From IMG/VR virus record IMGVR_UViG_3300031784_000002: a DNA stretch of 64,000 nucleotides; one strand, written 5' to 3'. Below are positions 30,131 to 59,371 of this stretch, piece after piece. Position 1 is the stretch's first letter; the number at the start of each line of letters is the position of its first letter. Under the pieces are notes generated by a model. It ran no database searches. It was given only the letters and a program-made list of their open reading frames with translations, and was not told the DNA's origin. The position numbers were made by a program, and so were the translations under genes. This stretch comes from a virus. Taxonomy: Duplodnaviria; Caudoviricetes.

Positions 30131-30193
30131 GGACACTTGATGAGCTGTCCATTGACCCTTGACTTCTGTGGTCAAGGGTTTTACTATAGCCAT
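30131..30193 (+). promoter_or_regulatory. Promoter cassette copy (with canonical -35)
   Basis: GGACA-N10-TGTCCA; TTGACT-N17-TACTAT-AGCCAT; hairpin CCCTTGAC/GTCAAGGG. Confidence 0.75.
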
Positions 30194-30209
30194 ATAAATC
30201 TCCAGATTC

Positions 30210-30791
30210 ATGACTTACGAAGCCACTCTGAAAGTTAAGTTTGATACCAAATTCGTCAATCATTCCACCTATGGTGTATATGATGATGAGATTCTTCCTG
30301 AAGAACATTATACTTTTGAGATTCCTGTTGACGACATCAATACCATTCAACTCTTTCGTTTCTTTGGAACGATTGCCCGCACGATGGGACATAATGAACT
30401 CGGTATTATGAAAGGTGCTTGTTCACTTGCATTTAATGATATGCGTAGTGAAGAGGACATGAAGAAGATTGCGGAAGAATTTGATCTGAAACTTTCTGAA
30501 GATTATTCTAAAGAACTTTGTGAGAATGAAAAAGAAATTCTCAAACTGAAATTTGAGATCAGTGATTTGAAAGCTAAACTTTCTCGCCTTGAACAACCAG
30601 AGAATCCTCAATATACTGATGAAGAAATAGATGCAATGACAGAGGATCAAATGAAACATTGGAAAGGTCTTGTTCCTGGTAGTTATGCTGCTGTTGAAAA
30701 TGGATGTAAGTGTCCTGTAATGGATAATGAAGAAATGCCTGATGATCGTAAATGGGTGAATGGTGATTGCCCTCTTCATGGTAAAAAGTGA
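30210..30791 (+). CDS. Hypothetical protein with coiled coil and C-terminal Cys/His motif
   Basis: GCKCP...GDCPLHG. Confidence 0.7.
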   Translation: MTYEATLKVKFDTKFVNHSTYGVYDDEILPEEHYTFEIPVDDINTIQLFRFFGTIARTMGHNELGIMKGACSLAFNDMRSEEDMKKIAEEFDLKLSEDYSKELCENEKEILKLKFEISDLKAKLSRLEQPENPQYTDEEIDAMTEDQMKHWKGLVPGSYAAVENGCKCPVMDNEEMPDDRKWVNGDCPLHGKK

Positions 30792-31075
30792 TGAGAACTG
30801 ATCAAGAAATCCTTGATAATGCAGCACTCAAGGTATCACAAATCCTTCGAATCTCTGTAGGAGAGATTGATAAGACCAAGTTCGTGTATTTGTATACTTT
30901 ACTCTACAACATGATGGGTCAGGGCCCAGATGGTCAACCTTGTGAGGAAGGTGATCTAAACATGAGACACTGGTTGAATACTCACAATAGCCACTTGGGA
31001 TTCTGTCCTGCAGCCCGCTTGACGGATGAGGGTTCTATGCGTATGATCATCTCATATCTTGAGAGTTTCCTATGA
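30788..31075 (+). CDS. Protein resembling the MbcA/ParS/Xre antitoxin C-terminal domain (DUF2384)
   Basis: WLNTHNSHLGFCPAARLTDEGSMRMIISYL matches the WLxxxNxxLG..P...L...EG...V...L pattern. Confidence 0.5.
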   Translation: MMRTDQEILDNAALKVSQILRISVGEIDKTKFVYLYTLLYNMMGQGPDGQPCEEGDLNMRHWLNTHNSHLGFCPAARLTDEGSMRMIISYLESFL

Positions 31076-31706
31076 AACCCAACTTCCGTAAAGTTCTAGA
31101 AATGGCACTTGAAGAAGGTGTCCGTTTCGGTTATCATCGTGCCCACAAACATGTAGAGAATCCACACGAAGATGCAGTGGTTGATCTTGTTGTGGAGGGT
31201 GCGATGAACTCTATTTACGAATGGTTTGAATTTGAGGAGAATCATGTCTCTAATTGATACACTAGAATACTTCATTGATGATACCAGAGCACGTTGTTCT
31301 GATATTGAATGGGAGATCCGTGAGGAAGGTAACTATGCTCATGAAGAAGACCATACATCACGATTTGATTACTTCTGTGAAGAGTATGATGAGGCTAAAG
31401 CACGTTTAGATGATCTCATGCAAATCAAATCTATTATTGAGGCACAACAATGAAAATCAAATTTAACGGACACTCTCCCACTGAATGTGAGGTAGAGTTT
31501 GACAAAGACGACCAAGTGCGCCTGTTTGAGATTATGAAACAAGAGTTTATTGAACATATTACTTACTCTAAGTTTAGTAATCTCAGTTATCCTACACACA
31601 CTGAACGACAACTCGAAAACTTCTGTAAAAATTATGGTGTAGACATCGAGTATTCAAAAGACCGTATAGCATTCTTCACTGCCCTTATCAAGGAGATGAA
31701 ATTCCA

Positions 31707-32036
31707 ATGAGCGGAGGACACTTTGGAAACTGCGGTTATGATTACTACAAGGTATCTCAGTTTGCTGATGAGTTGGAAGTAGAAATCCAGGACAAAAAGG
31801 ATGAGTATGGGCATTCCTATAACTTTTCACCAGAAACTATCAACTACTTGAGGAATCAACTTATTCCGATGCGTAAGATGGCAGAGATCATGAGGCACAT
31901 TGATTATCTGTATTCGGGTGATCATGGTGAAGATAGTTTTATGTATCGTGTAAAAGAAGTTGAGAAACACTGGAAAGAGTGTGAAGACCTTGCTACTCGT
32001 ATGGATGAATGGAATGAAACTGGAGACGGCGTATGA
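31707..32036 (+). CDS. Conserved phage hypothetical protein
   Basis: MSGGHF...IDYLYSGDHGEDSF. Confidence 0.7.
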   Translation: MSGGHFGNCGYDYYKVSQFADELEVEIQDKKDEYGHSYNFSPETINYLRNQLIPMRKMAEIMRHIDYLYSGDHGEDSFMYRVKEVEKHWKECEDLATRMDEWNETGDGV

Positions 32037-33154
32037 CCACACGAATTGAACTCAAACCAGTCTGTATTACCTACAGAAAACATGTCATATTCACTCCTAC
32101 AGCAGAAATGTTTGAGGATTGGGATGTAGAACCCACACAGGAAGGATTTGAGGAGTATGTAATTCAAGAGTTTCTAGATGAGATGTGGTGGGAGTTGAGT
32201 AACAAGAGTGCTAACACTCCTATGGACTATGTTGATCTTGATACTCTAGACGAGAACATTGAGTTTGATTGGGGTGAATATGATGAGTGAAGATATGCCT
32301 TGGGTGATTGGATTGTCTGATGAGGAAGTCCAAGAACTTCGTAAGAATAAACAAGAACTCACAGAATACGGAAAGAATAAGATCCGAAAACTTTTGGATG
32401 AATATTCTAAACAAAACAAGAAACCAACTCTATGGGAAATTATGAGAGACCAACTTGGTTTCTCTATAGATATGTGTGATGAAATTGTAGATGCAGTTGA
32501 AGGATGGCTTCCCCCTCAACACGAAACTAACGACTATCAATGGAATAAATGTATTGACTTAATGAAGGAGAAGTTGAGATGACGAATCAAGAAACAATCG
32601 AAGAGAATAGAATAACAGCTGCTCAAAGATACTTTAAAAAAGTAGAAGAGTCTTTGCAACGCAGACGAATTCAAACTGAAATTGAAGAAATTGGTGAATA
32701 CTCCAACTTACTTGCAAAGACTAATGGAGTAAAGTCTATTGCTAAGTTGAAAGAAAAACATAGAGAAAACCTTTCTTCAGTGGGTAAAGTTTATATTGAA
32801 GAATATGAAAAAGAATATGGAAAAATTCCAGAATACGAACGTTGGGTATTCATGGAATCTTCTTATTTTATTCCGGGTGAAGGACACTCGACTTGCCTAT
32901 TAGTGACACAAGCTTTACCATGTGATGAAGATTCCCTTGAAGGGACTAATGAAGTGATCACAACGCAAATTGATCGTGCGGTAAGGGAGTTTTTCAAAGA
33001 GTTCGGTACTATGTCTTTGTATAATCTTGGATTTCATGATCGAGAGGGATTTTTTGAAAAATATTCGATTATGATTCCACATGCAGTAATAAAATTCAAA
33101 GACAAGCCGTGCGATTTCACATTCAAACTAAAGTTTCATTATAATTTTCCCTAA

Positions 33155-33460
33155 ATGACCTACAAACTTGATGAAAATGTCAAAGCATTCTCTTACACCC
33201 GTGAAGAGTTGTTTGATTGTATCATGCGAATCGTAGCACATCCACACACCGCTATCACTCAACACGATAAGGCTCGTGCCATGGCAATCTTCCTCACCTT
33301 TGCTGATTATCTTGGCAATTACACTGAGAGTGACAACAACTTTGGTCATGTCATTTATGAGTCTGACTCTACAGATTTCGAGGGGCATGTATTACAGTTG
33401 TTAGGTAAAAATAAGCCAATGGATTTTTATCGCACTGACGCCGATGAGTTACTGAAATGA
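33155..33460 (+). CDS. Hypothetical protein
   Basis: In-array ORF with ATGA coupling to the next gene. Confidence 0.75.
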   Translation: MTYKLDENVKAFSYTREELFDCIMRIVAHPHTAITQHDKARAMAIFLTFADYLGNYTESDNNFGHVIYESDSTDFEGHVLQLLGKNKPMDFYRTDADELLK

Positions 33461-33648: not shown

Positions 33649-33706
33649 GGGCCATGATTCAAACTGGCACACAAGGGGCGCTGATGCTCTCGATAGGTTG
33701 TATAAT
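33649..33706 (+). promoter_or_regulatory. Promoter cassette copy
   Basis: GGGCCA-N10-TGGCAC; TATAAT begins 47 nt after the left half-site. Confidence 0.65.
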
Positions 33707-34136
33707 GAAAACAATGAAGGACTGAAACGACTTGCTATGGTTGAAAAAGTAAAGTTTGTAAGTGTCACCCGTGTGATTGATGACCGCAAAGGTATTCATT
33801 ACCTTGATGCTATTGATGAGAATGGGTATCACTGGACTGCTGAAATGGATAACAAACAAGAGAAATGGTTAGTGTATACGAAAGTGTGGACTAAAGACCC
33901 TCAAATGCCGTATGATATATGAAAAACTACCGCATCAAAAAAGTCACAGACGGACACTCAACCAGATACTACCCACAACACAAAAGATTTGGATTGTTCT
34001 GGTATAATCTATTTGTAGACGAATATAGGGATGGTGATTATTCTACATTTGAAGAAGCACAGTGGCACCTTTGTAACTATTTGAGGGAACCTGTGGTAGA
34101 ATACCTTGACTTTGATTGTGATTGTGGAGAACCTCT

Positions 34137-34777: not shown

Positions 34778-34834
34778 GGACACTTGAAGAACTGTCACAG
34801 GGACACTCCAAAGCCCCCTGTGATGCCTTATAAT
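34778..34834 (+). promoter_or_regulatory. Promoter cassette copy
   Basis: GGACA-N10-TGTCAC; TATAAT at +47. Confidence 0.7.
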
Positions 34835-37023
34835 ACACTCATAATCAACCAAACCGATGCCTACTCCCAAAGAAACCTACGAATACGTTGAACAACTGAT
34901 TGATGAAGAACTCAACACTTTGATTGATACAGCATATCTCAACAAAGAAGGTGAAGCACTCGTAAGGTTCAAACAAGACTTCAAAGACCTTTACAAACAT
35001 TTGGAGAACATTCAACAAATGAAAAAATCTTATCTTTCAGGACGATGAAACTCTACCAGCACTCCAAACAAACTTATCAGGATGGTGAAGTAGATCACAC
35101 TTGGCAGTTTGGTATCATCAAAAACCGAGCACTACTCTGGGTGAATTTTGAAAGCCCTGGTGGTGTCATTCATTCTTCTGGTGGTATCAACCTCTTGTTT
35201 TCTTTCTTTGGTAATTCTCTTATGAGTGTAGATTTTCAACAACGCAAATTTTGTTTAGCAGTTGCTTTTATTACTGAATACGATGACTGAACGCAATTTC
35301 AAACAAGAACTTGTACACTCCTGTTATTATGACATGGAAGATGGACATGACAGCGAAACAATTGATTATGATTGTTTGATTGGTGTTATCACTGAATTGT
35401 GTGATAGAATAGAACAACTTGAATCTGAAGTCAAGATTCTAAACCGAAAACTTACGGAAGACACATTTGAAGTGATTAAAAATGACTGACCCAACCCACG
35501 AAGAAATGCTTGAAGAAGCAGAACGAAGAGAAGCAGCAAACAAAGCAGCATTAGAATCACTTGGAATTGACTACGAATCTTTCGGACAGAAACCTTGGAA
35601 TGAAGGTCATTTGGATTATGAAGCACCGAATGGTGATTACATCAAAAACTATCCACTCATCAATCGGGTGGAGGTAATTGGACCGAATGGACGAGAGTAT
35701 GTTAATTACGAATGCTCTAACATCCAAGTATCAGAACAAGACAACGGACGCACACTTAAGGTATTTCTATCATGACACGATTTACAGAAAACCCAGACGA
35801 AATCGTGCTGGAAGAAGTGAAGATGTTTCACCTGGAAAGTATGAATGAACGCACCTTATGGGTCGGGGTTTATACTCAAAATGGTAAAACCTATCACTTG
35901 AATATTTCTGCGGATGGTGATAAACTGCGTTATTATTGGAGTGATGAAACCTGTGACTAGGCGTGCTCAATATCTTCTAGATGCTTCAATGGAACTCACA
36001 CTTCGTCCACAGAAAGGTGATCGTCAGAGACTGATTGCGTTTATTCTTCGTGAAGTTGCTGATCGATTTTGTACTGATTGGGGAGAACTTGAACATCCTT
36101 ATGATGTGTTGAATAATATAGCTAATGAAGTAGAGTCACTCTAATGTTTGAAACTGAAAAAACTTGGTATCACGAAAGGGATTGGGATTCGTGTGAAAAA
36201 CTTCGCCACATCCAAGATGCGGAGTATAATACTCTTGTCGCAAAGTCAGAACAGATGCGTGATATTGAAGAGATGAAAAGAGATCTTCGTGATCTTTATG
36301 AACTTGTGAGATATTTGGAAAATAAGTGTGACTTTCTTGAGAGTCAAGTTGAAGAAAACTATTACGACAGATAATCATGATTGATGTAAAAGAAAACAAA
36401 GATGGATCACTTGACATCTCATGGGATGAAAATGATCCTCAAGAAAGTATTTTGAACACTTGGACAGAACAAGACTTTATTAAGGCTATCACTGATCGTT
36501 TAGAGGAATTGAAAGTTGGACTTACCGATGTGGATGAATAAGTGGATCATCGGATTTAAACCGATTAAATATACACCATTCTGGTGGTGGTATCGTCTGA
36601 TATCTCATCAAGGATTTCGCTTTGATGATTATCATATGTGGGGGTCTTTCTGGCATTCACTTAATCATGGATGGGAACATATGGAATATGTTTATAAGTT
36701 TGAAGAGTATTGGGGCAAGGGTTCTTATCCACCAGAACGCATTTTCTTAAAAGAAGGAGATTTTGATGCTCTAGTGGAAAGATTATCACTTCCGAGTGAA
36801 TCAACAATGGAAAGTATTAAGAGAATTATGGACCGTAAAGCACCTTGGGATGAAGAATGAAACGCAACCGTTCTCAAATACCTGAGTTTTACAAAGTCGG
36901 TTATATTTTAGATTATGAACAGAAATGGGCCTGTTACTTTGACTTTAATTGTGCTCAGGAAGCCATGATGAAGATGATTCAACGTGGTATAAATGTCACT
37001 GGAATGGAAACACAAATGATGGT

Positions 37024-37094
37024 GTGACAGTCTTTTGGCTGTCCACTGATCTCGCCGAAGGGGCTCTGATCTTGGTATCTTAGCCATGTTGAGA
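37024..37094 (+). promoter_or_regulatory. Promoter cassette copy
   Basis: GTGACA-N10-TGTCCAC...TCGCCG...TATCTTAGCCATGTTGAGA. Confidence 0.85.
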
Positions 37095-38480: not shown

Positions 38481-39101
38481 ATGTTCATCAAAAATAATAA
38501 ACCAGTTAAAATAATTGGATTTCCCGAATCTTCAATCACTCAACAATACTTTGAAGTTTTCAATAAGGAAGGATTGAAAGATATTTCTATAATCACTCCC
38601 AAAGACTTCAAAGCTTTAATTTCAAAAGATAACTATCAATACATTATTGCTTTCTATCTTGACATGGATCTTAGAAAAGAGGTCTGTGATTTATTAGATA
38701 ATCTTAATCTAGATTGTTTAACATACATAGATGATTCGGTTTACATGTTCTCCTCTTCCAAAATTGGAAGGGGATCTTTTATTGGTCATTTGTGTGAGAT
38801 TTGTTGGAATGCTTCAGTAGGCGATCATTGTTATTTTGATAACCAATCTGGTATTGGTCATGATGTTATCCTAGGTAGAAATAGTATCATTAGTTCAAGA
38901 GTTTATGTTGGTGGGAGAACAAAAATAGGAGAAAACTGTAAGTTCTTTTTGAATGGAACAGTTATGAATAACTTAAACATTTGTGATAATGTAATTTTAT
39001 GCACACACAGTAACATAACAAAAGACATCACAATTCCTGGGAAGTATGTTGGTAGAAATGCAAGACTTATGAAATCTGAAGAGTCCGATAAGGATCTCTG
39101 A
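38481..39101 (+). CDS. NeuD/PglD-like sugar O-acyltransferase (hexapeptide beta-helix)
   Basis: SKIGRGSFIG, VGDHCYF, IGHDVILG, IGENC, ICDNVIL, ITKDITIPGKYVG. Confidence 0.8.
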   Translation: MFIKNNKPVKIIGFPESSITQQYFEVFNKEGLKDISIITPKDFKALISKDNYQYIIAFYLDMDLRKEVCDLLDNLNLDCLTYIDDSVYMFSSSKIGRGSFIGHLCEICWNASVGDHCYFDNQSGIGHDVILGRNSIISSRVYVGGRTKIGENCKFFLNGTVMNNLNICDNVILCTHSNITKDITIPGKYVGRNARLMKSEESDKDL

Positions 39102-39142
39102 TCGGTCAGCCCCTTGACTCTCCCCCGAATCCACAGTATTTT
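39088..39142 (+). promoter_or_regulatory. sigma70 promoter with upstream 16-bp element (copy 1)
   Basis: ATAAGGATCTCTGATC(39088-103)-N10-TTGACT-N17-TATTTT. Confidence 0.7.
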
Positions 39143-41000: not shown

Positions 41001-41055
41001 ATAAGGATCTCTGATCAATGGCCCCATTGCCCTGCGCCGGGTGATGGGGTATTCT
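41001..41055 (+). promoter_or_regulatory. sigma70 promoter with upstream 16-bp element (copy 2)
   Basis: ATAAGGATCTCTGATC(41001-16)-N10-TTGCCC-N17-TATTCT. Confidence 0.7.
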
Positions 41056-44250: not shown

Positions 44251-44318
44251 GTGACAGTCAAGAAACCGTACACTCTTCATCCAAATCCGCTCCTTGACGC
44301 ATTAAGTTAGCCATGTTG
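44251..44318 (+). promoter_or_regulatory. Promoter cassette copy
   Basis: GTGACA-N10-CGTACAC...TAAGTTAGCCATGTTG. Confidence 0.7.
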
Positions 44319-45370
44319 GTAAAGACTATGACTACGAAAACAAAACGGGTTTCCGTTGTACCACTGTCCAGTAAAGCTAAGAACCGATTCCATAATGTTA
44401 TGGATCAGTTCCACATGTGTACTGTAGAACAGGAAAAGACGATTGATGGTGTACCTCACTTGTTCCTAGTTTCTATGAACAAAATGTACTGTTTCTGGGT
44501 TCCTGTCAAGGGTAACGAACACTGGAAAATTGAACGGTGACGGTAGAACTATTCCATAAAGCCCCAGAGGGTTATCATTATGAACAACAAAAGGATTTCA
44601 AGAGGAACACTACTGCTATTTGGTTGCATCACCATCAGCGGTACGACTATAATCTTGGGAAACCAGTTAAAACCATCTGGGGATTCTACAACACCAAAAC
44701 CAGGCAATTCCACGCCCCAGTTAATAGCCAGACAGTGGGTAATGTAGTTGACATTGAAGAGACAACACCTTATACTGCAATGCCTATCAAACAAACTCCC
44801 CTTGAGGCTGCATTTGGATGATTAAAAATCAAAGAGAACTTATCAAGTATTTGGAAAACTACCACGAGTCAAGGTGTTCTGACCTTGCAGAAGCTGGCAG
44901 GAAAAAAGATGCACAATCCATCTACTATGAGATCGTAGTAGATGAACAAGACCCCAAAGATTACCTATTTGTTTCACTCCACCGCGCACGATGAAGTATA
45001 AAGTAGACTGGACTTCTCCCCGTCAGGGCATCCAATCAACCACTGTTGATGCTCTTGGTCCTATGCAGGCTGAAGAACAAGTCAACTCCATGTATGCACA
45101 TGTTGAGGGATTTAGGTCATTCTGTGTTAGTCCTGTTTTCGATAAAAAAGAATACTCAGAACCACAACAATCTTATAGTTCTAGTTCTGAAAGTTCTGGA
45201 GGATCTGATGACTTTAGCACTATAGTTGGTGGAGGAGCTGTTGCTGCGGGATTCTTCATTGCACTTTTTGGATTGTTCACACTTCCCACTGGTATTGTTG
45301 CTATGGTGATCGGTGGAGCTGTGGGTTGGATTGGTTGGAAAGTGGCCTGCTGGTTGAGTGATCGAGGCTG

Positions 45371-46398: not shown

Positions 46399-46465
46399 GT
46401 GACAGATCAATAACTGTCACAGGGGCTCTTCACAGGGCCCTTTTTTCGTGTATTATGGCTATATG
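46399..46465 (+). promoter_or_regulatory. Promoter cassette copy with embedded terminator-like hairpin
   Basis: Perfect GTGACA-N10-TGTCAC; GGGCTCT-TCAC-AGGGCCC-T6; TATTAT at +47. Confidence 0.75.
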
Positions 46466-47377
46466 AAGAACACACATCTCGAACATCCCGAAGATTCTGC
46501 ACTTCTCGGTAAGAAAGCCGTGCAGGATACTATCAATTACCTGCGTAACTGCAAAGGTGATTGTAGTGTGAAATATGATGGTGCTCCTGCTATTGTTTTT
46601 GGGACTAATCCCGAGAATGGTAAGAAGTTTGTAGGTACAAAAAGTGTATTCAATAAGGTCAAAGTTAAGATCAATTATACACACTCCGACATCGAAAAGA
46701 ATCACGGCACGAATCCTAAAGTTGCAGCGATTCTTCATACCTGCCTTTCTCACTTCCCGCAGTTTGATGGGATTTATCAGTGCGATTGGATTGGTTATGG
46801 TGGTGAAACAACTTTTACGCCTAATACTATTACCTACAATTTTGATTCCGTTCCAGGTATTCTGGACGTTGATCTTATTGTCGCTGCTCATACACATTAC
46901 ACTGGAGATTCCATCAAGGAACTGGAGGCACATTTTGGTGTCCCTAACTATCTTTCTGGTCGTTTTCTTGGTATTCATTTTGTAGATGGAAATGCACAAT
47001 TTACCTCCCGTCGTCGTAGGATTGATTACATTCTTGGTCTTGCAAGTGTGGTTAGCAATTTTGTTAGATACCCTGATGAAAAAGAAGTAGCGAACCTTAA
47101 AATTGCAATCAATAAGTGTATCCGAGAGAATCGACCTGTTGATTGTATTGATGGCAATCTCCTCCTGTTGTTCAACCTGTTGACCAAAGCTAAAGAATTG
47201 ATCATGGAAGGAATCTCCGTGACTGGTGATCAGGTTGATGCACGGATTGATATGGGCATTGATTACATTCCTTCTGGCCATGAGGGTTATGTTCACTCCA
47301 ACGATTACGGGACTTTCAAGTTAGTTAATCGTCGTATGTTCTCTTACTACAACTTCACCAAACCTAAAGGTTGGTGA
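46463..47377 (+). CDS. T4-like-phage conserved protein with KxDG (ligase-type nucleotidyltransferase) motif
   Basis: HLEHPED, SVKYDGAPAIVFG, FVGTKSVFN, EGYV, KLVNR..FSYYNF. Confidence 0.65.
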   Translation: MKNTHLEHPEDSALLGKKAVQDTINYLRNCKGDCSVKYDGAPAIVFGTNPENGKKFVGTKSVFNKVKVKINYTHSDIEKNHGTNPKVAAILHTCLSHFPQFDGIYQCDWIGYGGETTFTPNTITYNFDSVPGILDVDLIVAAHTHYTGDSIKELEAHFGVPNYLSGRFLGIHFVDGNAQFTSRRRRIDYILGLASVVSNFVRYPDEKEVANLKIAINKCIRENRPVDCIDGNLLLLFNLLTKAKELIMEGISVTGDQVDARIDMGIDYIPSGHEGYVHSNDYGTFKLVNRRMFSYYNFTKPKGW

Positions 47378-47449
47378 GGACAGTTACGGAACCGTCCACT
47401 AGAGGCGCCAGGCGACTCCCTGGCGATGTATCTTAGCCATGTTGAGAGG
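47378..47449 (+). promoter_or_regulatory. Promoter cassette copy
   Basis: GGACA-N10-CGTCCAC; CGCCAGG/CCTGGCG hairpin; TATCTTAGCCATGTTGAGAGG. Confidence 0.85.
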
Positions 47450-49007: not shown

Positions 49008-49078
49008 GTGACAGTTGGCGGGCTGGACACCAAACCCGCCAAACCCAGCCAGATCCTGTATCTTGGCCATGTTGAGAG
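49008..49078 (+). promoter_or_regulatory. Promoter cassette copy
   Basis: GTGACA-N10-TGGACAC..CCGCCA..TATCTTGGCCATGTTGAGAG. Confidence 0.85.
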
Positions 49079-49999: not shown

Positions 50000-50182
50000 T
50001 TAACAACAATTGATTTTTGATGAATCTGATTGCAGGGGATGACCTAATCCCCTACTGGGGTAAAATTGCAGAAAAATCATTGTTTGCTCAAACTCAAATC
50101 CCTTGCCACGACAGGGATCTTAAAGTGAGAACCATGCGACGATTTGAGGGTTGGACGGATCAGAGACAAACCGAGCCAGAGT

Positions 50183-50253
50183 GTGACAATCCGCAAACCG
50201 CACACCAATTCAACCAAAGGTGGCCATGAGGATGTATCTTAGCTATGTTGAGA
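50183..50253 (+). promoter_or_regulatory. Promoter cassette copy
   Basis: GTGACA-N10-CGCACAC...TATCTTAGCTATGTTGAGA. Confidence 0.8.
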
Positions 50254-50903
50254 CAAACACACAAACCCCATGACTTTCGTTGACGCACTGATCGCATCTG
50301 GTTATGTCTTTGATGATGAGAATTATGATGGTTGTTATGTGAAACAAGACTCAGAGGGTTTCATTCACTGTTATCAGGAAAATGTGGATGATGACACTGA
50401 CACTCTCTGGAATTATGTCAAAATGACTGAGGATTTTGATGTGATTCATGAGGTTACTTTTGATCCCAATGTTGATACTATTGTTGAGTGAATCAATGAA
50501 CTTCACTCATAAAGTTAGAAGTTGGTCTGTAACTCTTCCAAGAGAGTTAGAAGAAGAGAAGAAATGGTGGAGGAGAAAACCAGGAAAACCCAGAAAGATG
50601 GGTGATCCGTTACCACCACCAAAGGGTAAATTACCCAAGAAAAATAGTGACAAACGCATGTTGCAAGGTTACTATTTGTTGAAGAGAAGTGGTCAACCTG
50701 TTGATGCACTTGAATCTCTGATTGCACACCTTCTGTGACACAAATCATGAACGACAAAACTAAACTCATTTTCGCATTGATGCAGATTGATAACATCACC
50801 AACCTGATGAAAGAGAATGAGTATGAGCACTTTATGGTGTCACACTTAATTCCACTTCAGGTAGAGATTCAACGACAACTGAGCAACATAAACCATAGGG
50901 AGT

Positions 50904-50976
50904 GTGCCAGTCTGCAGACCGTCCACTAAACCTGCCGAAGGGGGCCGTGGCCTTGTATCTTAGCCATGTTGAGAGG
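50904..50976 (+). promoter_or_regulatory. Promoter cassette copy
   Basis: GTGCCA-N10-CGTCCAC..CTGCCG..TATCTTAGCCATGTTGAGAGG. Confidence 0.85.
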
Positions 50977-51791
50977 AACGCAAATGACCCGCAAGTTTCA
51001 CACCATGAGCATCGAAGATCGTGAAATGTTTGCTTACAATTCTGCCTACCAAAAGCAACAGGCCGAGATGAAGCGTATTCTTGCACAACCCGAGCAACGC
51101 ATTAAGTATGCCTTTGAGTTTCTGAAAGGTTATGTTGCTGATGGTGATCAAATGATGGCAGCAAAGTGTTACAATGCCATCGCAAAGTACAGTGAAATGC
51201 TTGACACTTCTGAGGCCCACTTCTGATGAAAACTAACTACATTCCCAAACAACATTGGGACGATTTATATGATCGTCTCCATGATGCTTATGTTGAGTGC
51301 ATGAAGTATCACAATCCAACTTATGAGCAGAAACTTGCTCAAATCTTGGATCATATGATTATCAACAAACCCCATCTGGCTATCAAATGACTTACAAAGA
51401 ACTCCTGCAACAGCTTCAACAACTCGACGAAGATCAGCTCAATTCTGATGTTGTTATCTATGATGAAGGCATCAATGAGTATTATCAACTCAAAGTTGAG
51501 TTAGTGTTTGCAACTGAGCGATGTCAGGTACTTAATCTAGACCACCCTATCATTCGTTTCTGATGATGTACGCAACCCTAGCTGAGTTTCATAGTTACGT
51601 CTTCAAGTTCTATGGCCGTGGTGGTGTGTATCCTATGGGTGCAACTTTGAAGGAGATTGCATCAGCAACTGAGATTCTGTTGGAGCAACTTACTGCAACA
51701 GATGGTGAGTTTCATGGTGATAGTATGGATCGTGAGCTTGTGCGGGACATTCTCATTTCAGAATACGGCTTAGAGTTTCCCGATTAAGCTT

Positions 51792-51862
51792 GTGACAGTT
51801 GGCGGGCCGTCCACCAAACCCGCCAAAGGGGCCCAGGGCCCTGTATCTTAGCCATGTTGAGA
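51792..51862 (+). promoter_or_regulatory. Promoter cassette copy
   Basis: GTGACA-N10-CGTCCAC..CCGCCA..TATCTTAGCCATGTTGAGA. Confidence 0.85.
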
Positions 51863-52649
51863 CAAACAAACGCAATGCGCTACATCACTATCACCTTCGG
51901 CCCTCGCAACGATGATCCTAGCCAGTTCTACAACGAGCGTACTTGGTGGGATCGTCAGAGTCAAGCTGAGAAGTGGGGGCTTCAGTCTCTCTCAATCGCA
52001 GGTTGTTTCGGTTATGTTGTGATTGAAGAGGGAGAGGATTCGTGGAAGATTGTGGATGAACTTGGTGCTCCTTCTAATGCTGTGAGTGTGTCTGCTGAGT
52101 ATAAAGGTGGAGTCACCTATTCTGTTCAACCTGCACCTAAACTTGTTCTGGTTTGATGAACTACCGAATGAGAATTATGTTGTCTCCAATTATCTCCTGG
52201 CACCGACATGTTACAGGATACTGGGAGAAGAAACTCCCACACATTCCTGGAGCAAACTCTAAACAATTCTGGAACATTATCAACGGAAACTGATGCACAC
52301 TGGTTACACTTTCAACCGAGTTGAGTTCACTCAAGATGAGGAAACTTGTCTCTTGCGTTTGATGTTCCAAGCACGAGATTGTGGGAACTGTAATGTTGAT
52401 GAAGAATGGCTGCCTTTGTGTAATGATCTGATCACAAAGTATTACAACAGCCACATCAAAGAAGCTCAACCTTTCCAAACTCTCTGAAATTATCATGGTC
52501 GTTCACTTCTACGAAGGTCAATCCTACTCCTGGAATTATGCCAACCGCAGCTACGATGATAGTGGTTGCTGGGAAGATTATCTGTCTGGGGATGAGTATG
52601 AAGAGGCTCTAGATCGTAAGCGGTTTGAGCAATCAAATCGGGACTGGTA

Positions 52650-52720
52650 GGCCAATTTACTGGCTGCACACTAAATCCGCCGAGTGCAGCCAGAACCTGT
52701 ATCTTAGCCATGTTGAGAGG
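52650..52720 (+). promoter_or_regulatory. Promoter cassette copy
   Basis: GGCCA-N10-TGCACAC..CCGCCG..TATCTTAGCCATGTTGAGAGG. Confidence 0.8.
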
Positions 52721-53098
52721 AATCGCAATGACCGAGTTCCAAACTATCATCAACGATCTGACTCCCGAAGAGCGTAAAGCTCTAAAAGAAGCAACTGCTC
52801 CCGAATGGGTCAAAGCTATCCGTGAGACTGTCAATGATCCAAACTTTTGGAATGACATGGCTATTGCTTTTGCTCAAGGAGTTATCAACGGATTGAATGA
52901 TGCTCTGGATGACAACAACAATCGCCGTCACCGCTGATGACTGACGCACAAAAGCTTGAGGCACTGACTGACCTTCTCTCCAATGTCATTCACTCTCTGG
53001 AGATGACAAAGTATGAGATTGAAGATGTATCAGAGGCAGCAAATGTGGTTCGTGAGGCAGACCACTATCACCAACAAATGCTAGACATTCTTCATGGT

Positions 53099-53172
53099 GG
53101 CCCAGTTGAAGAACCTGCACAAGCCCCCTAGACTTCTCCAGCCAGATCCTGTATCTTAGCCATGTTGAGAGG
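53099..53172 (+). promoter_or_regulatory. Promoter cassette copy
   Basis: GGCCCA-N10-CTGCAC; TAGACT-N17-TATCTTAGCCATGTTGAGAGG. Confidence 0.8.
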
Positions 53173-54428
53173 AATCGCTCCCCAATGTTTGACGAACTCT
53201 GGTCCGAGATTGCTGACATGCCTGGTGAAATCTTTGACACCACGATGACAGCAGAAGAACGAGCTGAGTTTCAGCGAGTTTGTGAAATGTCTGAAGAAGA
53301 GTATTACTACTACATGGAAGCTGCCTGAAATGATGAACGATCTCCGTCAACGTTGCATGGATCTCGCCGATGAAATGTCGGCCGAGGTGAATGGAAACCT
53401 GTTCTATGTTCCCGATGAAGACATAGAGGATTGTCTGAAAGCTTTGACTGAGGATAACATCCAAGATGTCGCAGCTGAACTTGCAAACTTAGCTCACTGG
53501 TTTAACTGATCATGAACCTGAACACTCTTGAATTGCTCATTGCTGACTGCTTTGAGTACATTTATGACCGCGACGCCAAAGCTGGTGCGTATTGGTGTGA
53601 ACAACTCTTCACCAAGCAAGGTGACATCAAGCGTCACATGATCACTGAGATGACGCTACAACGGCTTGAGAACATCGCCGCTGACCTTTATGATCATCAG
53701 GAAGCCTGAAATGACGAATCAAGAATGGGTTGATGGCTTCAAGATTGTGCTGATCATCCTATTTGTGATTGGTGTGATCATTCTTTATGTTCACAACATC
53801 AAAGTTGAGCATGCTGATTGTATCGCACACGGCGGCCAATGGGTGCATGGACTCAGCTCAGATGGTGGGGCTCAATTCTACTGCATTGAGCCCCCTGGAA
53901 TCTAACACAAACACAACACACAAAACAATGCAAACCACCAAAGCTTTCCCTCCCGCTGACGATCTGATTATGAAACTGCAAGAGATTGACTACATCAAAC
54001 AACTGAACAAATACATGGACATTGTTGAAACTATTGTGGTATGGATTGCCGCAATCGCTACTATCATCTTTGAGAAGTTTCAAACTCTAAAGATCACAAC
54101 TCCTCAAGCTATCTCCGATTACTTCTACTTTAGCTTTAACATGCGCTATGCTCCTGGTGATGAGATTATGGCTCTGAGTGTAGGTAATCTTTACCTCGGT
54201 TTGTATAGCGATTCGCTGAACTGGGGTGTGCTTGACGAGAACGGCTGCCTCTGATTTGATCAAACATCTAATTTGATGCAATTCTGGCTGCATGGGATGA
54301 TCCAATCTACCTGTCAGCCAGTTTTAACGCTTTTTTCGGTTTCTGTCCTAGTGGTGGCCACGAGTCTCACCGCTTCCAACCTGAGACCAGCAGGGGGCTT
54401 CTGCGATCCTGACCAAACCTGGGGGCTT

Positions 54429-54498
54429 GTGACAATTGGCTCCCTGGGCCAGATTCTCGCCAAAGGGCCCCTCGGCCCCATATATTGGCCACATGAGG
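54429..54498 (+). promoter_or_regulatory. Promoter cassette copy (GGCCACATGA subtype)
   Basis: GTGACA...TCGCCA...TATATTGGCCACATGA. Confidence 0.75.
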
Positions 54499-54545
54499 GA
54501 GAGGGAACGACCCCGACCCCGACCAAACCATTCTCTGCTCAAACC

Positions 54546-54860
54546 ATGCGTAAGATCGAAACCCTGATGAACAAAGCTATCCAGCAAGAAATTGACTGGA
54601 AGCTGGACAACACCGAAGTCATCAGCTGCTCCAACGTTTCTGATGTCTACCTGCATGGCAATCTGATTGCTCGCATCGGTGAAACTTGGCTGGAACTGTT
54701 CGACGGTGGTTGGCAGACTGCTACCACGAAGTCCCGTCTGAATGCTATTCTCGCTGCACACGGCTGCCCTGGTGAGCGTGTCTTCCAACAGAAAGGCCAG
54801 TGGTTCATCACTATCAACGGAGCTAAGGTTCCTTTCTTCTCCGGTATGCGCCTGAACTGA
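54546..54860 (+). CDS. Conserved phage hypothetical protein
   Basis: MRKIE...VYLHGNLIA...DGGWQTATTKSRLNAIL; first gene after a cassette. Confidence 0.7.
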   Translation: MRKIETLMNKAIQQEIDWKLDNTEVISCSNVSDVYLHGNLIARIGETWLELFDGGWQTATTKSRLNAILAAHGCPGERVFQQKGQWFITINGAKVPFFSGMRLN

Positions 54861-55513
54861 TGGCTAGAACCAAGACGCTAACATTCAAGTCACCCGACAA
54901 AATGAAAACAATTGGCCTGATCTTTGTGATAGCGTTCTTGTTTTTCCCATCAGTTCGTTACACCACGGGGAGCATGATGCACTCTGCCGCTGATTTCATC
55001 CAATCCACAGCTAACTGATCATGATGACACTTACCGCTCTTAATTTTCAAGAACTCGATACACTTTTGGCTGTTCTTGAGTCTAGCGATTGGTGCTACTT
55101 GACTGAACTTACAGAGACAGACATTCCGGCTCTGTATGATAAACTTTCTGAAATGCGGGACGAAGTGTAATGAAACACACCAACACAGTTCGCATCATCG
55201 ACCGACTTGGCTTGTTCCCTGAGACTAGAGGAAAAGCCCGCTACATCTCGGTCAAAACTTATGCTCATGCAATGGAGATTGTGGATGAGCAGAACAAACT
55301 CGGCAACACAGCTACCCTGATTAACTGGTAACAAATTATGGGACATCATCGCACAATGGTTGAAACTGAACACTACGAGCTTCCGCTTGACTTTTATCTC
55401 AAGTGTGAGTTCATTGCTGCTCAATTAGAGGTCACAGTTGATTACCTTCTCGATGAGTTTTACGATGACGGGGAGCTCATTGTGCCAGACTTTGTGCAAG
55501 AATGAGCAGCGAT

Positions 55514-55586
55514 GTGACAGTCTTCGGACTGTCCACTAAATCCGCCAAACCCCAGCCAGTCTTGGTATCTTAGCCATGTTGAGAGG
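55514..55586 (+). promoter_or_regulatory. Promoter cassette copy
   Basis: GTGACA-N10-TGTCCAC..CCGCCA..TATCTTAGCCATGTTGAGAGG. Confidence 0.85.
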
Positions 55587-56078
55587 TTCACGAATGACCA
55601 ACGCAACCAACTTCATTCCCTGCACTGACATCGAAACCCGTCAAGCTATGTGGGTTGGTATGAAATACGATGAGCAACTTGGTATCTTCAATGCTGTTCA
55701 AGTTGCATCGGCTTTCGCAGATCGTTATGCGGAAGATTACAAGCCTGTGACCTTCTGTGACTGAATCCAACTCTACATCTTCCAAACAAATGTTCACAAT
55801 CACCTATCAAGTTCCTTACAACAACTGTGAGTGGAGGACTCAAAGCTTCAAGACTCTTGAAGAAGCACAACGGATGATAGATTTCTACCGTTCTTGTGGT
55901 TCACCTTGCAAACTTGTTTGAGTAATTTAATCATGCGAATCGCTCTTCTGATTGCTACTCTTGCTCTTGGACTGAAGACTGGTCTTGCTGCTCATGCTAC
56001 GGTGAATGCCTATCAAGAAGCACAAGCCGAACGGCTGTGCCAGATTGATCCAAGCTACTGCGGACTGAAGCAAAAGTA

Positions 56079-56145
56079 GGACAGTCTGATGGCTGTCCAC
56101 CAAATCCGCCGAACCGACCCGTTTGGCCCTATATTGGCCACATGA
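56079..56145 (+). promoter_or_regulatory. Promoter cassette copy (GGCCACATGA subtype)
   Basis: GGACA-N10-TGTCCAC..CCGCCG..TATATTGGCCACATGA. Confidence 0.8.
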
Positions 56146-56941
56146 AGAACAACACCACTCAAATGTCACTTTTCTCCCAAGGCTGGAAAGCTGAAGAATA
56201 CTTCGGTAGCGAGCTGACTGCTCATCACATGAACACTCGTTCGGTGTATCGTTTCAAGGAGAATGCCAATGTGAGCATCACTCACTCCGGAAAGTATGCT
56301 GAAGATGGAACTGTTGATGTGTTCACAGTTTCTGTTCGTGAGGAGATCAATCCTCGCCACTCGGTTACTCAAACTGTTGAGACCTTTGCTAACTTTTTGG
56401 ACGCATACTACTGCGGTGTGCAGTGTGTCAACAATCTGAATCTTGATCTCATCACTATTAACTGAATCAATTTACTGAGCAACTATCATGAACATTTTTG
56501 ACCTGCAACGTGATCTCCAGAAGGAAAAGCTTTCTCTGGAAGAATTGCTGACTGAAGTGAAGGCTTCACTGGTGACGATCAACGAAAACCTAGAAGCTGT
56601 TGATCGAGTTGCCAAGATGTTTGGTGGAAAAGCCACATCGCCCGAACACAATCAAGAGTTCATGGCTAAACTACGTTCGCTGCTCTCTCAGAAGTTCAGC
56701 CAGAGGGAAGTTGATGAACTCATTGAAATTATTGAGCAAGATGATGTGCGGAGGCTGAACGGCAAACTGAATAAGAACCCTGCAAGCTACACTCACCAAG
56801 TTCTCGCATTGTGCTATCAGATGCGAATTGTGAATGGTAACATTCAAGATCACATGAAGGATGCGATTAAGCGTCTGCGTGAAGCTGGCCACATTTCAGT
56901 GGAGCAATCTAAGTGGTTTGTTTCACAAGGTTTCTAATCAT

Positions 56942-57013
56942 GTGACAGCCATGCGGCTGTCCACCAAATCCGCCGAGACCCGCCATCTGATGTATTCTAG
57001 CCATGTTGAGAGG
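56942..57013 (+). promoter_or_regulatory. Promoter cassette copy
   Basis: GTGACA-N10-TGTCCAC..CCGCCG..TATTCTAGCCATGTTGAGAGG. Confidence 0.85.
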
Positions 57014-57657
57014 AATCGGAACCCAAATGAAAGTCTACGCTGTGATCGGTGGTTGGGATTATGAAGGCGAAGACTTTCAATCCCTGCGCCTGTTTGATTG
57101 TTTCTCTGCTGCTGATGCGTACCTGAAGCAACTTGATGAAGAATACGATTATGCTAAGATGGACACCCGCGAGGTGTGCATGGAATCTGCAATCGCTGCT
57201 TGATCATGAAAAACTATCGCGTTCGTGTTGAAACTAACGATGGCTGTGTCACGATTTGGTATGAGAAATCAAACGCAAAACGTGCTTGTGATCTTATCAA
57301 CAATCGGGTCTACAATCAGCTCTGTGGGTTGAACATCAAGGAAGTTGAAGTAACTCCTTCCGTCTGAACTTTTCTTCTTAATTAACACAAACACAAACTC
57401 ATGACTAACACTTTCGACCGCGCACAACTCGTTGAAGATTACATTCAACAACTGATTGAGGGAATGGACTATAAAACAATGGAGTGCTTTGTTTATGATA
57501 CTATGAAAGAGAATCTTTCTAGTTATACTGATGAAGAATTGATTACAGAGGTTCAAGACTACTATCCTGAGCTGATTGAAGGCTGATTCGCCATTTGCGA
57601 ATAGAGAATGAGATGCGCTCTAAAGACACTCACATTCCCAAACACTTTGCTACTCTC

Positions 57658-57783
57658 ATGATTCAAACTCGTAAAGACTTCTTCATTCAAGTTCTCGATC
57701 AGTTTGCTACTAATGGTAACGAACTTCTGCAGATTCTGGATGACATCGAATCTGGCGAATGTGAATGCTTTCTCGAAGATTGA
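57658..57783 (+). CDS. Small acidic protein with NGxEhLxhLD motif
   Basis: MIQTRKDFFIQVLDQFATNGNELLQILDDIESG. Confidence 0.6.
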   Translation: MIQTRKDFFIQVLDQFATNGNELLQILDDIESGECECFLED

Positions 57784-57829
57784 GCTCTAATTCTTTACAC
57801 TTTTCCCAAACACTTTTCTTCTTTTTCTC

Positions 57830-57988
57830 ATGACTCTTCAAACTGCAATCTCCATGCTTCAGAGTGCTCGCAACGGCGCCGAAATGCTTGAGGTTCTTGA
57901 TAGTCTCGCAGGTGGCTATGAGTACATCGAGTCCCCCATGATTGCTCAGGTGCTCGGAGTGCCCACGCTTGAACCAATGGAGTTCTGA
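57830..57988 (+). CDS. Small acidic protein with NGxEhLxhLD motif (paralog)
   Basis: MTLQTAISMLQSARNGAEMLEVLDSLAGG read manually. Confidence 0.6.
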   Translation: MTLQTAISMLQSARNGAEMLEVLDSLAGGYEYIESPMIAQVLGVPTLEPMEF

Positions 57989-57999
57989 TGATAGAATAG

Positions 58000-58024
58000 A
58001 GGGGGCTGAATAAGTCCCCTTTTG
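58000..58024 (+). terminator. Probable intrinsic terminator
   Basis: AGGGGGCT-GAATA-AGTCCCCT-TTT. Confidence 0.6.
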
Positions 58025-58784
58025 TGTCAACTTAACCCCGTAAATTGACTTCAATTCGTCACAACTTACGACATGAAGAAACGCTACCTGATTGCTGCAT
58101 CAATTCTGCCATTGACTCTGCTTGTGTTCGCAACAGTTCGGGACAGTTGTGCTAATCCCAGCTATGCCCAATACTTTACAGAATCATGCCAGACAAAATG
58201 ACACAATCAAATTGGGCTGAGAATCTAACACCTGAAGAGCAACAACAAACTTACAACGAGATCGTCAATTATCTCAAAGAAGAAGTGCTTTCACAGGTGT
58301 CAGAAAAGTATGACAAACCCATTGCCTATAAGTACAGAAACGTATAAAATAGTAACGTACCTTCAACCACATTCAAGGACACACACTCATGCAAACCATC
58401 AACAACAAAGTTACACGCTATCGAGTTACGTTAGACTTTACAGTTGATACATCTAACTGTGTAAGTCCTAAGGAATGGAACTGGGCTCAACTTCTCGAAC
58501 TTGGTAACAGCGAATCAGTCAATGAGGTTTATGTAGAGAATCTCGGAGAATATAACATTCGTAGGAGCAAGTGAAGATGGGAGAAGATCAAGAGTTTTTT
58601 TACAACGAAATGATCGAACAAAGTTACTACGAAGAGGGAACGATTGACTGGGATGATTGCTCTCAAGGTGCGACTGAAGTAGAGTCTTATGATCCATAAG
58701 CTTTCAACGGAGACAACAGCAAAGGAGGAGTGGAGTTACATTGCTTTAGTCCTCAAAGAGTTGTTATCAATGAGTTATGAAAGC

Positions 58785-59113
58785 TTTTCCACAAGGCTGT
58801 TGAAAAAGCTGTGGAAAAATGGCTTTAAAATAAATGGCTAAAAAAACATGGCTTGTGTGAAAGCTTTCTCGTTTATGTTCTCTCTGTGGCCCCTCTGATG
58901 GCTTATAAAAAAGCCTCTGAGCCTTATGCTTATGTCCTCTAGAAAGCCTCTGAGACCTTGTGATCTAAGCGTGCAGGCTATCACACGACCGCATAAATGT
59001 CAAGAGGCACCTCACATAAGTCTCCGGGACCACACAATTTGAGCAACTTACCCCCCTCACAGTTCTTATAGTTTTCCACAGCACTTGTGGAAAAAGTCTA
59101 TAAGTTTTCCACA
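58785..59113. repeat. Cluster of five perfect TTTTCCACA (DnaA-box consensus) 9-mers in a gene-free interval
   Basis: Plus strand at 58785, 59072 and 59105; minus strand at 58810 and 59086; one-mismatch copy at 58798. Confidence 0.85.
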
Positions 59114-59300
59114 GCCTTATGAGCACTCTAAGTCCCCCACATCTCGGAGCTTGACATAAGCCCTCTGAAAGCCTTATAATAACTCTGTGGGAGTGCATAA
59201 AGGGGCTGAGTGCTTAAGCCTAAGCTAAAGGACTTATGTAAAGCTCAAGCCACAGAGACTTATGAGCCTACCATAGATTGCTGAGATCCAGAGACACAAT

Positions 59301-59371
59301 GGACACTTATCTAACTGGCCACAGAATGTGCCAGAGGGAGCCAGATCCCGTATATTAGCCATGTTGAGAGG
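59301..59371 (+). promoter_or_regulatory. Promoter cassette copy
   Basis: GGACA-N10-TGGCCAC...TATATTAGCCATGTTGAGAGG. Confidence 0.8.

Follow-up and report, generated by a model that had tools for sequence, protein, structure and literature searches.

The cassettes of the accessory region

The 64,000-nt stretch of DNA analysed here (the window) belongs to IMG/VR record IMGVR_UViG_3300031784_000002, a 124-kb virus contig with a CheckV completeness of 58%, and derives from an uncultured freshwater T4-like (Kyanoviridae-type) cyanophage of lakes. A gene for a gp32-type single-stranded DNA (ssDNA)-binding protein lies at the start of the window and matches Synechococcus myophages, and the encoded proteins include a helicase, a TauD-type dioxygenase, a DUF6267 protein and members of cyanophage PHROG families. 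The relatives of this phage are S-SRM01, S-CREM1 and DSL-LC02, and 15 studies of lakes or fresh water contributed the roughly 19 metagenome DNA runs in which the window sequence is present. From 30 to 59 kb, the window carries about 18 copies, all on the same strand, of a cassette in which an inverted repeat (the dyad) is followed at a fixed distance by a −10 box and a short leader. This cassette is the subject of the present study.

An earlier note, made from the letters of the window alone, had listed about 19 copies, 11 of them near-identical. A search of the window for GCYATGTTGAGA with at most one mismatch gave 11 matches, each of them exact and on the + strand, with cores at 37083, 47436, 49066, 50242, 50963, 51851, 52707, 53159, 55573, 57000 and 59358, compared with a mean of 0.67 matches in the shuffled window, where 11 matches were reached in none of 100 trials. 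An nhmmer profile built from these 11 strong copies and run over the whole 124-kb record recovered all 11 along with copies at 56075, 44246 and 54426 (E<1e-3) and marginal matches at 19688, 30130, 34775 and 46396, and found no comparable cassette elsewhere in the record or on the other strand. With a 25-nt weight matrix of the dyad only, 13 sites of at least 18 bits were detected on the + strand, each of them a cassette; the matches on the − strand were mirror images of the + strand sites, with a single stray match of 9.5 bits. Because the profile search returned the listed copies and the looser ones, despite differing leaders, retain the dyad together with a TAnnnT box at the usual distance, the list is correct, and the figure of about 19 is a fair one (of the copies 11 are strong, 3 clear and 4 loose, and the one at 19635 is an outlier; Table 1).

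To define the unit, we used the pattern TATCTTRGCCATGTTGAGA, which was found in 69 stretches of IMG/VR contigs (the related loci). Searches of these stretches and the window with nhmmer yielded 211 cassette copies, 145 of them unique, and 115 were aligned over their full length; the column counts below refer to these 115. The unit begins with the dyad tGTGACAGT-N6-RCTGTCCAC, continues with yAAAyCCGCCrA, about 16 variable G+C-rich bases and G-TATCTT-A, and ends with the leader GCCATGTTGAGA, mostly extended by GGAA. The leader, GCCATGTTGAGA(GG), supplies a ribosome-binding site 5–10 nt before the ATG of a small open reading frame (ORF). The dyad is a 23-bp imperfect repeat, GTGACAGTY-N4-6-RRCTGTC(C)AC, and is 23 nt long in 100 copies. 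From its start to the start of the −10 box is a distance of 51–53 nt in 111 copies, and in every window copy except that at 19635 (58 nt); the 46–48 nt reported in the earlier note is the same distance, with the count begun where the left hexamer ends. At the −35 position the copies have C-G-C-C-R rather than TTGACA (89, 86, 108 and 107 copies for the first four letters, then A in 76 and G in 39), as the YCGCCR noticed previously had suggested. If the transcription start is assumed to lie 7 nt past the −10 box, the dyad extends from about −64 to −42 and CCGCCR from about −36 to −31.

The left arm has the consensus G81 T76 G108 A75 C114 A108 G87 T100 T67/C47, where the numbers are copies carrying the base. 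Information content is about 2 bits at G21, C23, A24 and T26 of the left arm, at C36, T37, G39 and C43-A44-C45 of the right arm, at C54-C55 in the −35 region, at G76 with TATCTT and in the leader; it is about 0.1 bit at the four bases of the dyad loop and at most spacer positions. A set this dense and uniform, backed by more than 100 relatives, thus gives a sharp definition of which bases matter.

Every copy is on the coding strand and falls in one of the larger gaps between genes. Each cassette fills the interval from the stop codon that closes a short operon to the start codon that opens the following one, and heads one to eight tightly coupled small ORFs, which are 40–100 amino acids (aa) long and form runs. 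Upstream ORFs do end inside cassettes, with the stops at 33657, 44310, 46413, 50929 and 53131 just as first described. The ATG contained in GCCATGTTGAGA was considered as a general leaderless start and rejected, being out of frame and stopped in 35 of 91 unique copies. In 55 of the 91 copies, which are those of the loci L001-L069, this ATG (in the window at 37086, 47439 and other cores) shares the frame of the downstream gene with no stop in between, mostly at a spacing of 18 or 21 nt, which is above chance and below what a general start would give; the explanation may lie in the copying of a few leader variants or, for part of the copies, in starts that are dual or leaderless.

A scan of the 44–60 kb region with the sigma-70 consensus gave 32 sites versus 28.1 expected, which is no enrichment, and the 9-of-12 criterion was passed by only three cassettes (46399, 54429 and 59301). 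The cassettes are, therefore, not ordinary −35/−10 promoters. The idea of a promoter-like unit with a conserved dyad in the place of a −35 or UP element stood, with these three cassettes passing the loose sigma-70 scan. A second class of promoters, of the canonical TTGACA-N17/18-TATAAT type, is found among the cassettes and fits the scheme of host-like middle-gene promoters reported for the cyanophage Syn9. Some of the canonical promoters lie directly 3′ of a terminator-like hairpin and T-run (28745-28785). Repeats of the words TTTTCCACA, AGCCTCTGAG and CTTATG/CATAAG, along with a perfect sigma-70 promoter, are found in the gene-free stretch at 58835-59300, just 5′ of cassette 59301.

Table 1. 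Cassettes and other features located in the window (scores are profile or dyad-matrix values where given).
Feature	Position	Strand	Score
Strong cassette; dyad GTGACAGTCTTTTGGCTGTCCAC, CTCGCCG at −35, −10 TATCTT, leader GCCATGTTGAGA	37024..37094	+	61.8 bits; dyad 32.6 bits
Strong cassette; dyad AGGACAGTTACGGAACCGTCCAC; 7-bp spacer hairpin CGCCAGG/CCTGGCG	47377..47447	+	
Strong cassette	49008..49077	+	dyad 32.9 bits
Strong cassette; leader variant GCTATG	50183..50253	+	
Strong cassette; stop of upstream ORF at 50929 falls in the dyad	50904..50974	+	
Strong cassette	51792..51862	+	dyad 33.5 bits
Strong cassette; left partner in cassette-to-cassette indel	52649..52718	+	
Two-ORF block (75 aa and 64 aa) between two cassettes; absent from related contigs	52710..53131	+	
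Cassette with degenerate dyad over 3′ end of upstream ORF (stop 53131); right partner in the indel	53099..53170	+	44.7 bits
Strong cassette; dyad GTGACAGTCTTCGGACTGTCCAC, closest to consensus	55514..55584	+	dyad 33.9 bits
Strong cassette; −10 TATTCT, as at Syn9 gp63 and gp78	56942..57011	+	
Strong cassette; dyad TGGACACTTATCTAACTGGCCAC	59300..59369	+	
Cassette with full dyad and CCGCCG box; −10 TATATT, alternative leader GGCCACATGAAGAAC	56078..56147	+	E 5.7e-10; dyad 30.9 bits
Looser cassette; −10 TAAGTT, leader AGCCATGTTGGT; inside last 60 nt of upstream ORF	44251..44320	+	dyad 24.4 bits
Looser cassette; dyad GTGACAATTGGCTCCCTGGGCCAG, −10 TATATT	54429..54498	+	E 8e-4
Loose copy; near-perfect dyad GTGACAGATCAATAACTGTCAC; terminator-like stem and T-run in spacer; −10 TATTAT	46399..46468	+	
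Loose copy; GGACACTTGAAGAACTGTCAC, −10 TATAAT; dyad-to-−10 nearly the same as in S-SRM01 (L070:1484)	34778..34846	+	
Loose copy; GGGCCATGATTCAAACTGGCAC, −10 TATAAT	33649..33718	+	
Loose copy; dyad GGACACTTGATGAGCTGTCCA, −10 TACTAT, leader AGCCATAT	30131..30199	+	dyad 18.1 bits
Outlier copy; dyad-like GTGCCAAC..CTGTCAC, 58-nt spacing, −10 TATGAT, leader AGCCATGTTAAT	19635..19710	+	
Canonical sigma-70-type promoter	59151-59180		12/12 matches
Canonical-type promoters	44748-44776, 45756-45784, 29071-29100, 39112-39140, 28745-28785		
Three tRNA genes in tandem, Ile-TAT, Leu-TAA and Thr-TGT	20261-20522		

The dyad as a DNA site or a hairpin

The two arms of the dyad could form a stem of 7–9 bp with a tetraloop, for example GACAGTC-TTCG-GACTGTC at 55514, and the dyad is located just past stop codons. 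One could envision from this that it acts as an RNA or ssDNA hairpin, namely a terminator, an attenuator or a 3′-end stabiliser in the style of the promoter early stem-loops (PeSLs) of T4-type phages, and that the promoter consists of the −10 part alone. The cassettes at 30131 and 46399 do carry a terminator-like stem and a T-run; the hairpin at 30131 (CCCTTGAC/GTCAAGGG, then TTTT) is a true terminator-like one. Those stems reside in the spacer rather than in the dyad, however, as does that of 47378; no other terminator-like stem was seen and none at the dyad, although a fold of the dyad itself is possible. No T-run is present 3′ of the dyad, and no Rfam family was located on the cassettes.

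Compensatory variation is likewise missing from the 115 copies. At none of the 10 candidate stem positions did paired copies outnumber the expectation for independent columns (45 versus 52.3 for A22/T40 and 97 versus 98.5 for 27/32), and position 24/37 shows 17 uncompensated A·C combinations. The letters of the arms are conserved from the freshwater phages to marine Syn9 and to the host yfr2 promoters described below, where they lie 5′ of the transcription start, and the arms at Syn9 gp63 keep the consensus even though their inner positions cannot pair. Because the letters of the arms are kept and their pairing is not, the dyad is a conserved DNA sequence and not an RNA helix. The missing covariation rules out the RNA-hairpin reading of the dyad itself, and a hairpin function of the broader kind set out above is very improbable. 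The description of the dyad as an operator-type site was thus borne out by its sequence-specific behaviour, and the pattern of conservation points to a sequence-specific, probably dimeric, DNA-binding protein.

Related elements in phages and rearrangement at the cassettes

When the dyad matrix trained on the freshwater copies was applied to Syn9, sites of 18–21 bits were obtained at 43113 (gp55), 44774 (gp61), 47204 (gp68) and 49078 (gp75), each with a TAnnnT box 52–55 nt further on, and the dyad at these genes reads GTGNCAS-N8-9-STGTCCAC. The intergenic DNA before gp55, gp63, gp68, gp75 and gp78 contains GTG(A/C)CA(G/C)-N8-9-(A)GTGTCCAC, followed about 28 nt past the dyad by TATAGT, TATTCT, TACTAT or TATACT. 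Syn9, like the window phage, is a T4-like cyanophage with these units positioned 5′ of clustered small genes and devoid of a canonical −35 sequence. The same dyad and −10 units were found in the cultured freshwater phage S-SRM01 (Kyanoviridae, 240 kb), one of whose cassettes (L070:1484) is nearly identical to that at 34778 over the part compared, which is the cassette from the dyad through the −10 box.

A novel regulatory element is said to control the early genes of Syn9 and P-TIM40, whose middle genes reportedly use host-like promoters, and both kinds of element are said to be conserved among T4-like cyanophages; the early element is reportedly not of the sigma-70 type, in phages that lack MotA and AsiA. 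The Syn9 dyad sites are probably the sites of this early motif, and the comparison makes it very likely that the cassette is identical with the early-gene element reported by Doron and colleagues. The earlier note had itself cautioned that the element might be known from cyanophage studies, and the same dyad and geometry before the small genes of Syn9 bear out this caution. There are differences from Syn9. The window lineage has a fixed box, CCGCCR, in the −35 region, TATCTT as its −10 box and the 12-nt leader GCCATGTTGAGA where Syn9 has ATAAGAGTCAAAGG after the −10, and the density of copies, about 14 in 16 kb of the window, is far above that of Syn9. The cassette is a lineage-specific member of an already known class of elements and is not new in kind.

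Larger genes are present amid the small ORFs, in the spans 38481-39101, 41063-42301, 42881-43924 and 46448-47377, and encode a hexapeptide-repeat transferase, a ResIII/DEAD helicase, the TauD-type dioxygenase and the DUF6267 protein. The helicase was likened to Syn9 gp75, which is itself 3′ of a dyad cassette. At 41020-41070, 5′ of the window's helicase gene, there is a cassette-like −10 box and leader (GGGGTATTCTAGCTGTATTGAAACG) without a dyad, preceded by the hairpin CCCCATTGCC...GGTGATGGGG, whereas the Syn9 helicase gene has the full dyad.

Two systems of T4-type phages invite comparison. PeSL cassettes are known from RB49/phi1, T4/PST and KVP40/nt-1 (Arbiol 2010, PMC2839356; Comeau 2014, PMC4122927). 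Like these, the window cassettes are repeated composite units in a hyperplastic, ORFan-rich early region, all in gene direction, with an inverted repeat 5′ of an early promoter and at least one indel that arose by recombination between two copies. PeSLs, however, have a consensus sigma-70 promoter, an A/T-rich UP element and a GGGG...CCCC stem-loop shown to terminate transcription, whereas the window cassettes have no −35 sequence, and their repeat is a conserved protein-type site without T-run or covariation. The sigma-70 early promoter of the PeSLs, with TTGACA, TATAAT and an A/T-rich UP element, is not found in the cassettes. The second system is that of the T4 middle promoters, in which a MotA box and the appropriation of sigma by AsiA yield, as is proposed here, a promoter with a −10 box only and an activator site in place of the −35. 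The window cassettes differ in having no MotA box, in a dyad centred at about −53 rather than a single box at −30, and in heading genes of the early rather than the middle class. No MotA_activ match was found in the fragment, which is 58% complete. An AsiA-like match in G000 was dismissed as noise (14 bits, with three stop codons inside), and the fragment gave no other AsiA match. The postulated independence of MotA thus agrees with the lack of motA and asiA in the available 58% of the genome. Nor do the cassettes have an NtcA-type GTA-N8-TAC site at −41.5, the GTG...CAC arms of the 115 copies being 17–18 nt apart and centred at about −53.

The earlier note had also regarded the cassette as a unit of gene shuffling. 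Taken further, this reading would make the cassettes mainly recombination substrates, PeSL-like portable junctions whose conservation reflects copying or gene conversion and not regulation. To examine rearrangement, the window was compared with the 69 related loci, which revealed a mosaic region with 158 distinct colinear gaps. One event is clean. The 413-bp block at 52726-53139, which contains ORFs of 75 aa and 64 aa and is bracketed by the cassettes at 52650 and 53099, is absent from four related loci (L023, L047 and two more), which have in its place one hybrid cassette. The left part of the hybrid corresponds to cassette 52650 and the right part to 53099, and the switch falls within the shared 31-nt −10/leader block CCTGTATCTTRGCCATGTTGAGAGGAATCGC. 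In a second event, cassette 47378 is joined to 50183 (L060). Identical spacer and leader variants also recur beside unrelated genes.

These events have to be set against what occurs at other junctions. Within 44–60 kb, homology ended 4.6 times per cassette junction versus 3.0 times at the others, a 1.5-fold excess (Mann-Whitney p=0.054), and this is the outcome of the synteny-breakpoint check that had been proposed for the cassettes. Where a pair of cassettes shares at least one homologous flank, both flanks were homologous in 135 of 423 pairs (32%), compared with 204 of 734 (28%) at 401 cassette-free, translationally coupled junctions that served as the control, and many precise single-gene indels were found at ATGA-type junctions that have no cassette. 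Because breakpoints and flank linkage are close to those of ordinary gene junctions, the cassettes do not appear to be special seams. What remains of the shuffling claim is one clean cassette-to-cassette indel, at junctions not clearly more rearranged than ordinary ones, so that a role of the cassettes in gene shuffling is weakly supported, and the lack of a clear rearrangement excess over other junctions is a further difference from the PeSLs. The division of the alignment into conserved and free columns indicates selection on particular bases. That the cassettes exist mainly for recombination is, in our judgement, most improbable, and the notion of repeated promoters as seams of gene shuffling was not borne out once ordinary junctions were used as the control.

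The host CGRE1 element and the candidate factor

PMM1637, a homologue of the GntR-family regulator PlmA, binds the element CGRE1 in the promoters of the yfr2 small RNAs, as demonstrated by pull-down and electrophoretic mobility shift assay (EMSA) for the yfr2-family promoters of MED4 only (Lambrecht et al. 2018, PMC6191309). CGRE1 is a palindrome of 21 nt in low-light Prochlorococcus and marine Synechococcus and of 22 nt in high-light strains; it has GTTG or GTTA flanks and an upstream distance of 55–57 nt from the start, the repeat is perfect in the SS120 yfr2c promoter, and PlmA is universal in cyanobacteria (PMC6191309). We located the yfr2 genes of 151 cyanobacterial genomes with the Rfam family Cyano-1 and read their upstream regions. 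Our reconstruction of CGRE1 from the published text, GTTG-N3-GTGWCAC-N3-CAAC, was refuted by the actual promoters. The yfr2 promoter of a 1,751,080-base (Prochlorococcus-sized) genome reads CAACTGTCAC-T-GTGACAGTTG and that of a 1.67-Mb genome CAACTGTCAC-AT-GTGACAGTAA, and many others from genomes of 1.6–1.9 Mb keep at least tGTGACAGTT. The promoters of the CAACTGTCAC-T/AT form agree with the published description in length, palindrome and GTTG/GTTA flanks. Because the yfr2 promoters read GTGACAGTTG/A, the half-site of CGRE1 is GTGACAGTT(R). Over 9 nt there is no difference between this half-site and the left arm of the phage dyad, whose right arm corresponds to the inverted half-site with a C added.

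The likeness extends to position. Of 32 unique regions upstream of yfr2, 23 gave their highest score on the phage matrix at −66 to −58 (binomial p = 3e-16 versus uniform position), and in most of these a (T/A)AnnnT box is found 51–55 nt past the G, the phage distance being 51–53. The common half-site begins 52–54 nt before the start of the −10 box, the palindromes measure 21–23 nt, and the distal arm of the phage dyad is as far from the −10 as the promoter-nearest half-site of CGRE1. The yfr2 promoters of several genomes of 2.3–2.7 Mb (Synechococcus-sized) have the half-sites in the phage-type, head-to-head arrangement (GTGACGGCTGTGGAACTGACAC, GTGCCGCTTGAGAAAGTGTCAT and AGGACAGTTGAATGAGCGACAAC), and one from a 2.7-Mb genome scored 15.5 bits on the phage matrix; host sites reach about 15 bits at most, far under genome-wide significance. 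A scan of all prokaryote genomes (596 Gb) for GTGACAG-N7-9-CTGTCCAC was uninformative, as the matches listed were scattered over unrelated phyla, which is the chance expectation for 15 fixed bases.

One interpretation of these results is that the cassettes are early-gene promoters activated through PlmA of the host. Several observations weigh against it. In the Prochlorococcus form of CGRE1, which is the form tested by EMSA, the half-sites directly adjoin each other (AACTGTCAC-(A)T-GTGACAGTT, from about −77 to −56), so that the second half-site is distal and further upstream, whereas the phage half-sites, GTGACAGTT-N4-6-AACTGTC(C)AC at about −64 to −42, have the reverse relative order and the second one is proximal and 4–6 nt off. 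Because these arrangements differ, one fixed dimer would be unable to bind both in the same way. The extra C of the phage right arm is conserved, and the dyad is centred at about −53, where neither class I nor class II activators classically bind. The Syn9 genes with dyads are presumed to be early, and their dyads to be the Doron motif. Finally, the sole RNA run that contains the region (X20, 7–9% of words) is uninformative on start, strand and level; on 44000-60500 it gave 16 low-depth contigs, some of them across cassettes, and DNA carry-over is possible.

Two further observations concern the yfr2 promoters. Three of them, from Prochlorococcus-sized genomes of 1.6–1.7 Mb (L238, L239 and L240), have, beside the 22-nt palindrome, one more half-site (AACATTCC), which is weaker and lies 4 nt past GTGACAGTT, in the position of the phage right arm; the host CGRE1 element may, therefore, comprise three half-sites. 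The phage leader reads TGAGAGGA at 7–8 nt past the −10 box, and host yfr2 RNAs (L202, L234 and L243) start with (G)TGAGGAG equally far from theirs, a likeness that is missing from the Syn9 leaders (AAGAGTCAAAGG). It could be a Shine-Dalgarno resemblance, or the trace of a captured yfr2 promoter together with its 5′ end.

PlmA of the host is the best candidate for an activator at the dyad, because the CGRE1 half-site recurs in the arms, equally far from the −10 box. It is a candidate also because no GntR domain is encoded in the complete genomes of Syn9 and S-SRM01 or in this fragment, because an early promoter needs a factor that is already present, and because PlmA is universal. The earlier note had proposed a dimeric phage or host factor; the promoter with a dyad in place of the −35 was upheld, and the factor can be narrowed by the match of the arms to the half-site bound by PlmA. 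A literature search found no paper that links CGRE1 or PlmA with cyanophages.

Alternatively, a protein of the phage might bind the dyad, either an activator delivered with the virion or a repressor made early that closes the early promoters at the onset of middle transcription, in which case the likeness to CGRE1 would be convergent or irrelevant. A shut-off of this kind would suit the transient early transcription of T4-like cyanophages (PMC5082946, Table 1). The half-site arrangement and the extra C are unlike the EMSA-tested CGRE1, and the S-SRM01 annotations in the same region include small DNA-binding proteins, namely an AbrB/MazE-type protein and a 'DNA-binding domain' protein. Such a protein would nonetheless leave the 9-nt identity to the host half-site at an equal distance from the −10 to coincidence, the yfr2 promoters of the Synechococcus-sized genomes share the arrangement without any phage, and the first promoters need a factor present before phage genes are expressed. 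We think that a phage factor is unlikely, while giving it real weight.

Promoters of cyanobacteria often consist of a −10 box only, and a dedicated factor might be dispensable altogether. The dyad would then be a UP-like element or a contact for sigma or alpha, and host RNA polymerase would act alone, perhaps with a group-2 sigma factor, which would agree with the frequency of such −10-only promoters and with the rigid dyad-to-−10 spacing that direct contact with polymerase would produce. A two-fold symmetric dyad, however, points to a dimeric protein, and the dyad is G+C-rich whereas UP elements are A/T-rich. For the host element with the same half-site, moreover, pull-down and EMSA showed binding of a GntR-family regulator (PMC6191309). 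We regard the absence of a dedicated factor as improbable.

On balance, we favour the explanation that the cassettes are early-gene promoters of a freshwater T4-like cyanophage with host PlmA as the likely factor, and on the sequence comparisons we hold this to be somewhat probable. Host RNA polymerase carrying the primary sigma factor would recognise the −10 box, and a protein bound to the dyad would stand in for the missing −35 contact. Since the dyad is made of two copies of the CGRE1 half-site, its most likely binder would be the candidate PlmA, which is already in the cell before infection, as an early promoter requires. As a side effect rather than a main role, the copies recombine occasionally, owing to their roughly 30–70 nt of identity in direct orientation, with gain or loss of the genes between them. 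The present analysis extends the knowledge of this class by defining the element over more than 100 copies, by excluding an RNA hairpin and by testing the likeness to yfr2/CGRE1, which names PlmA. The yfr2 comparison thereby yields one named, purifiable candidate, with cultured systems (S-SRM01 and Syn9) at hand.

We further suggest, more tentatively, that infection may start by way of a copied yfr2 promoter architecture, so that PlmA, a partner of the PII-PipX complex of nitrogen and energy signalling in the host, switches on the early genes of the phage. If this is true, then early phage transcription would be wired to the carbon, nitrogen and light status of the host, and the promoter would be workable in any cyanobacterium, which would be consistent with the early-gene expression that generalist cyanophages show even when the strain is resistant (PMC6708340). 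Confirmation of the PlmA reading would account for the onset of transcription of these abundant phages in hosts that differ widely, and would tie infection to the nutrient signalling of the host.

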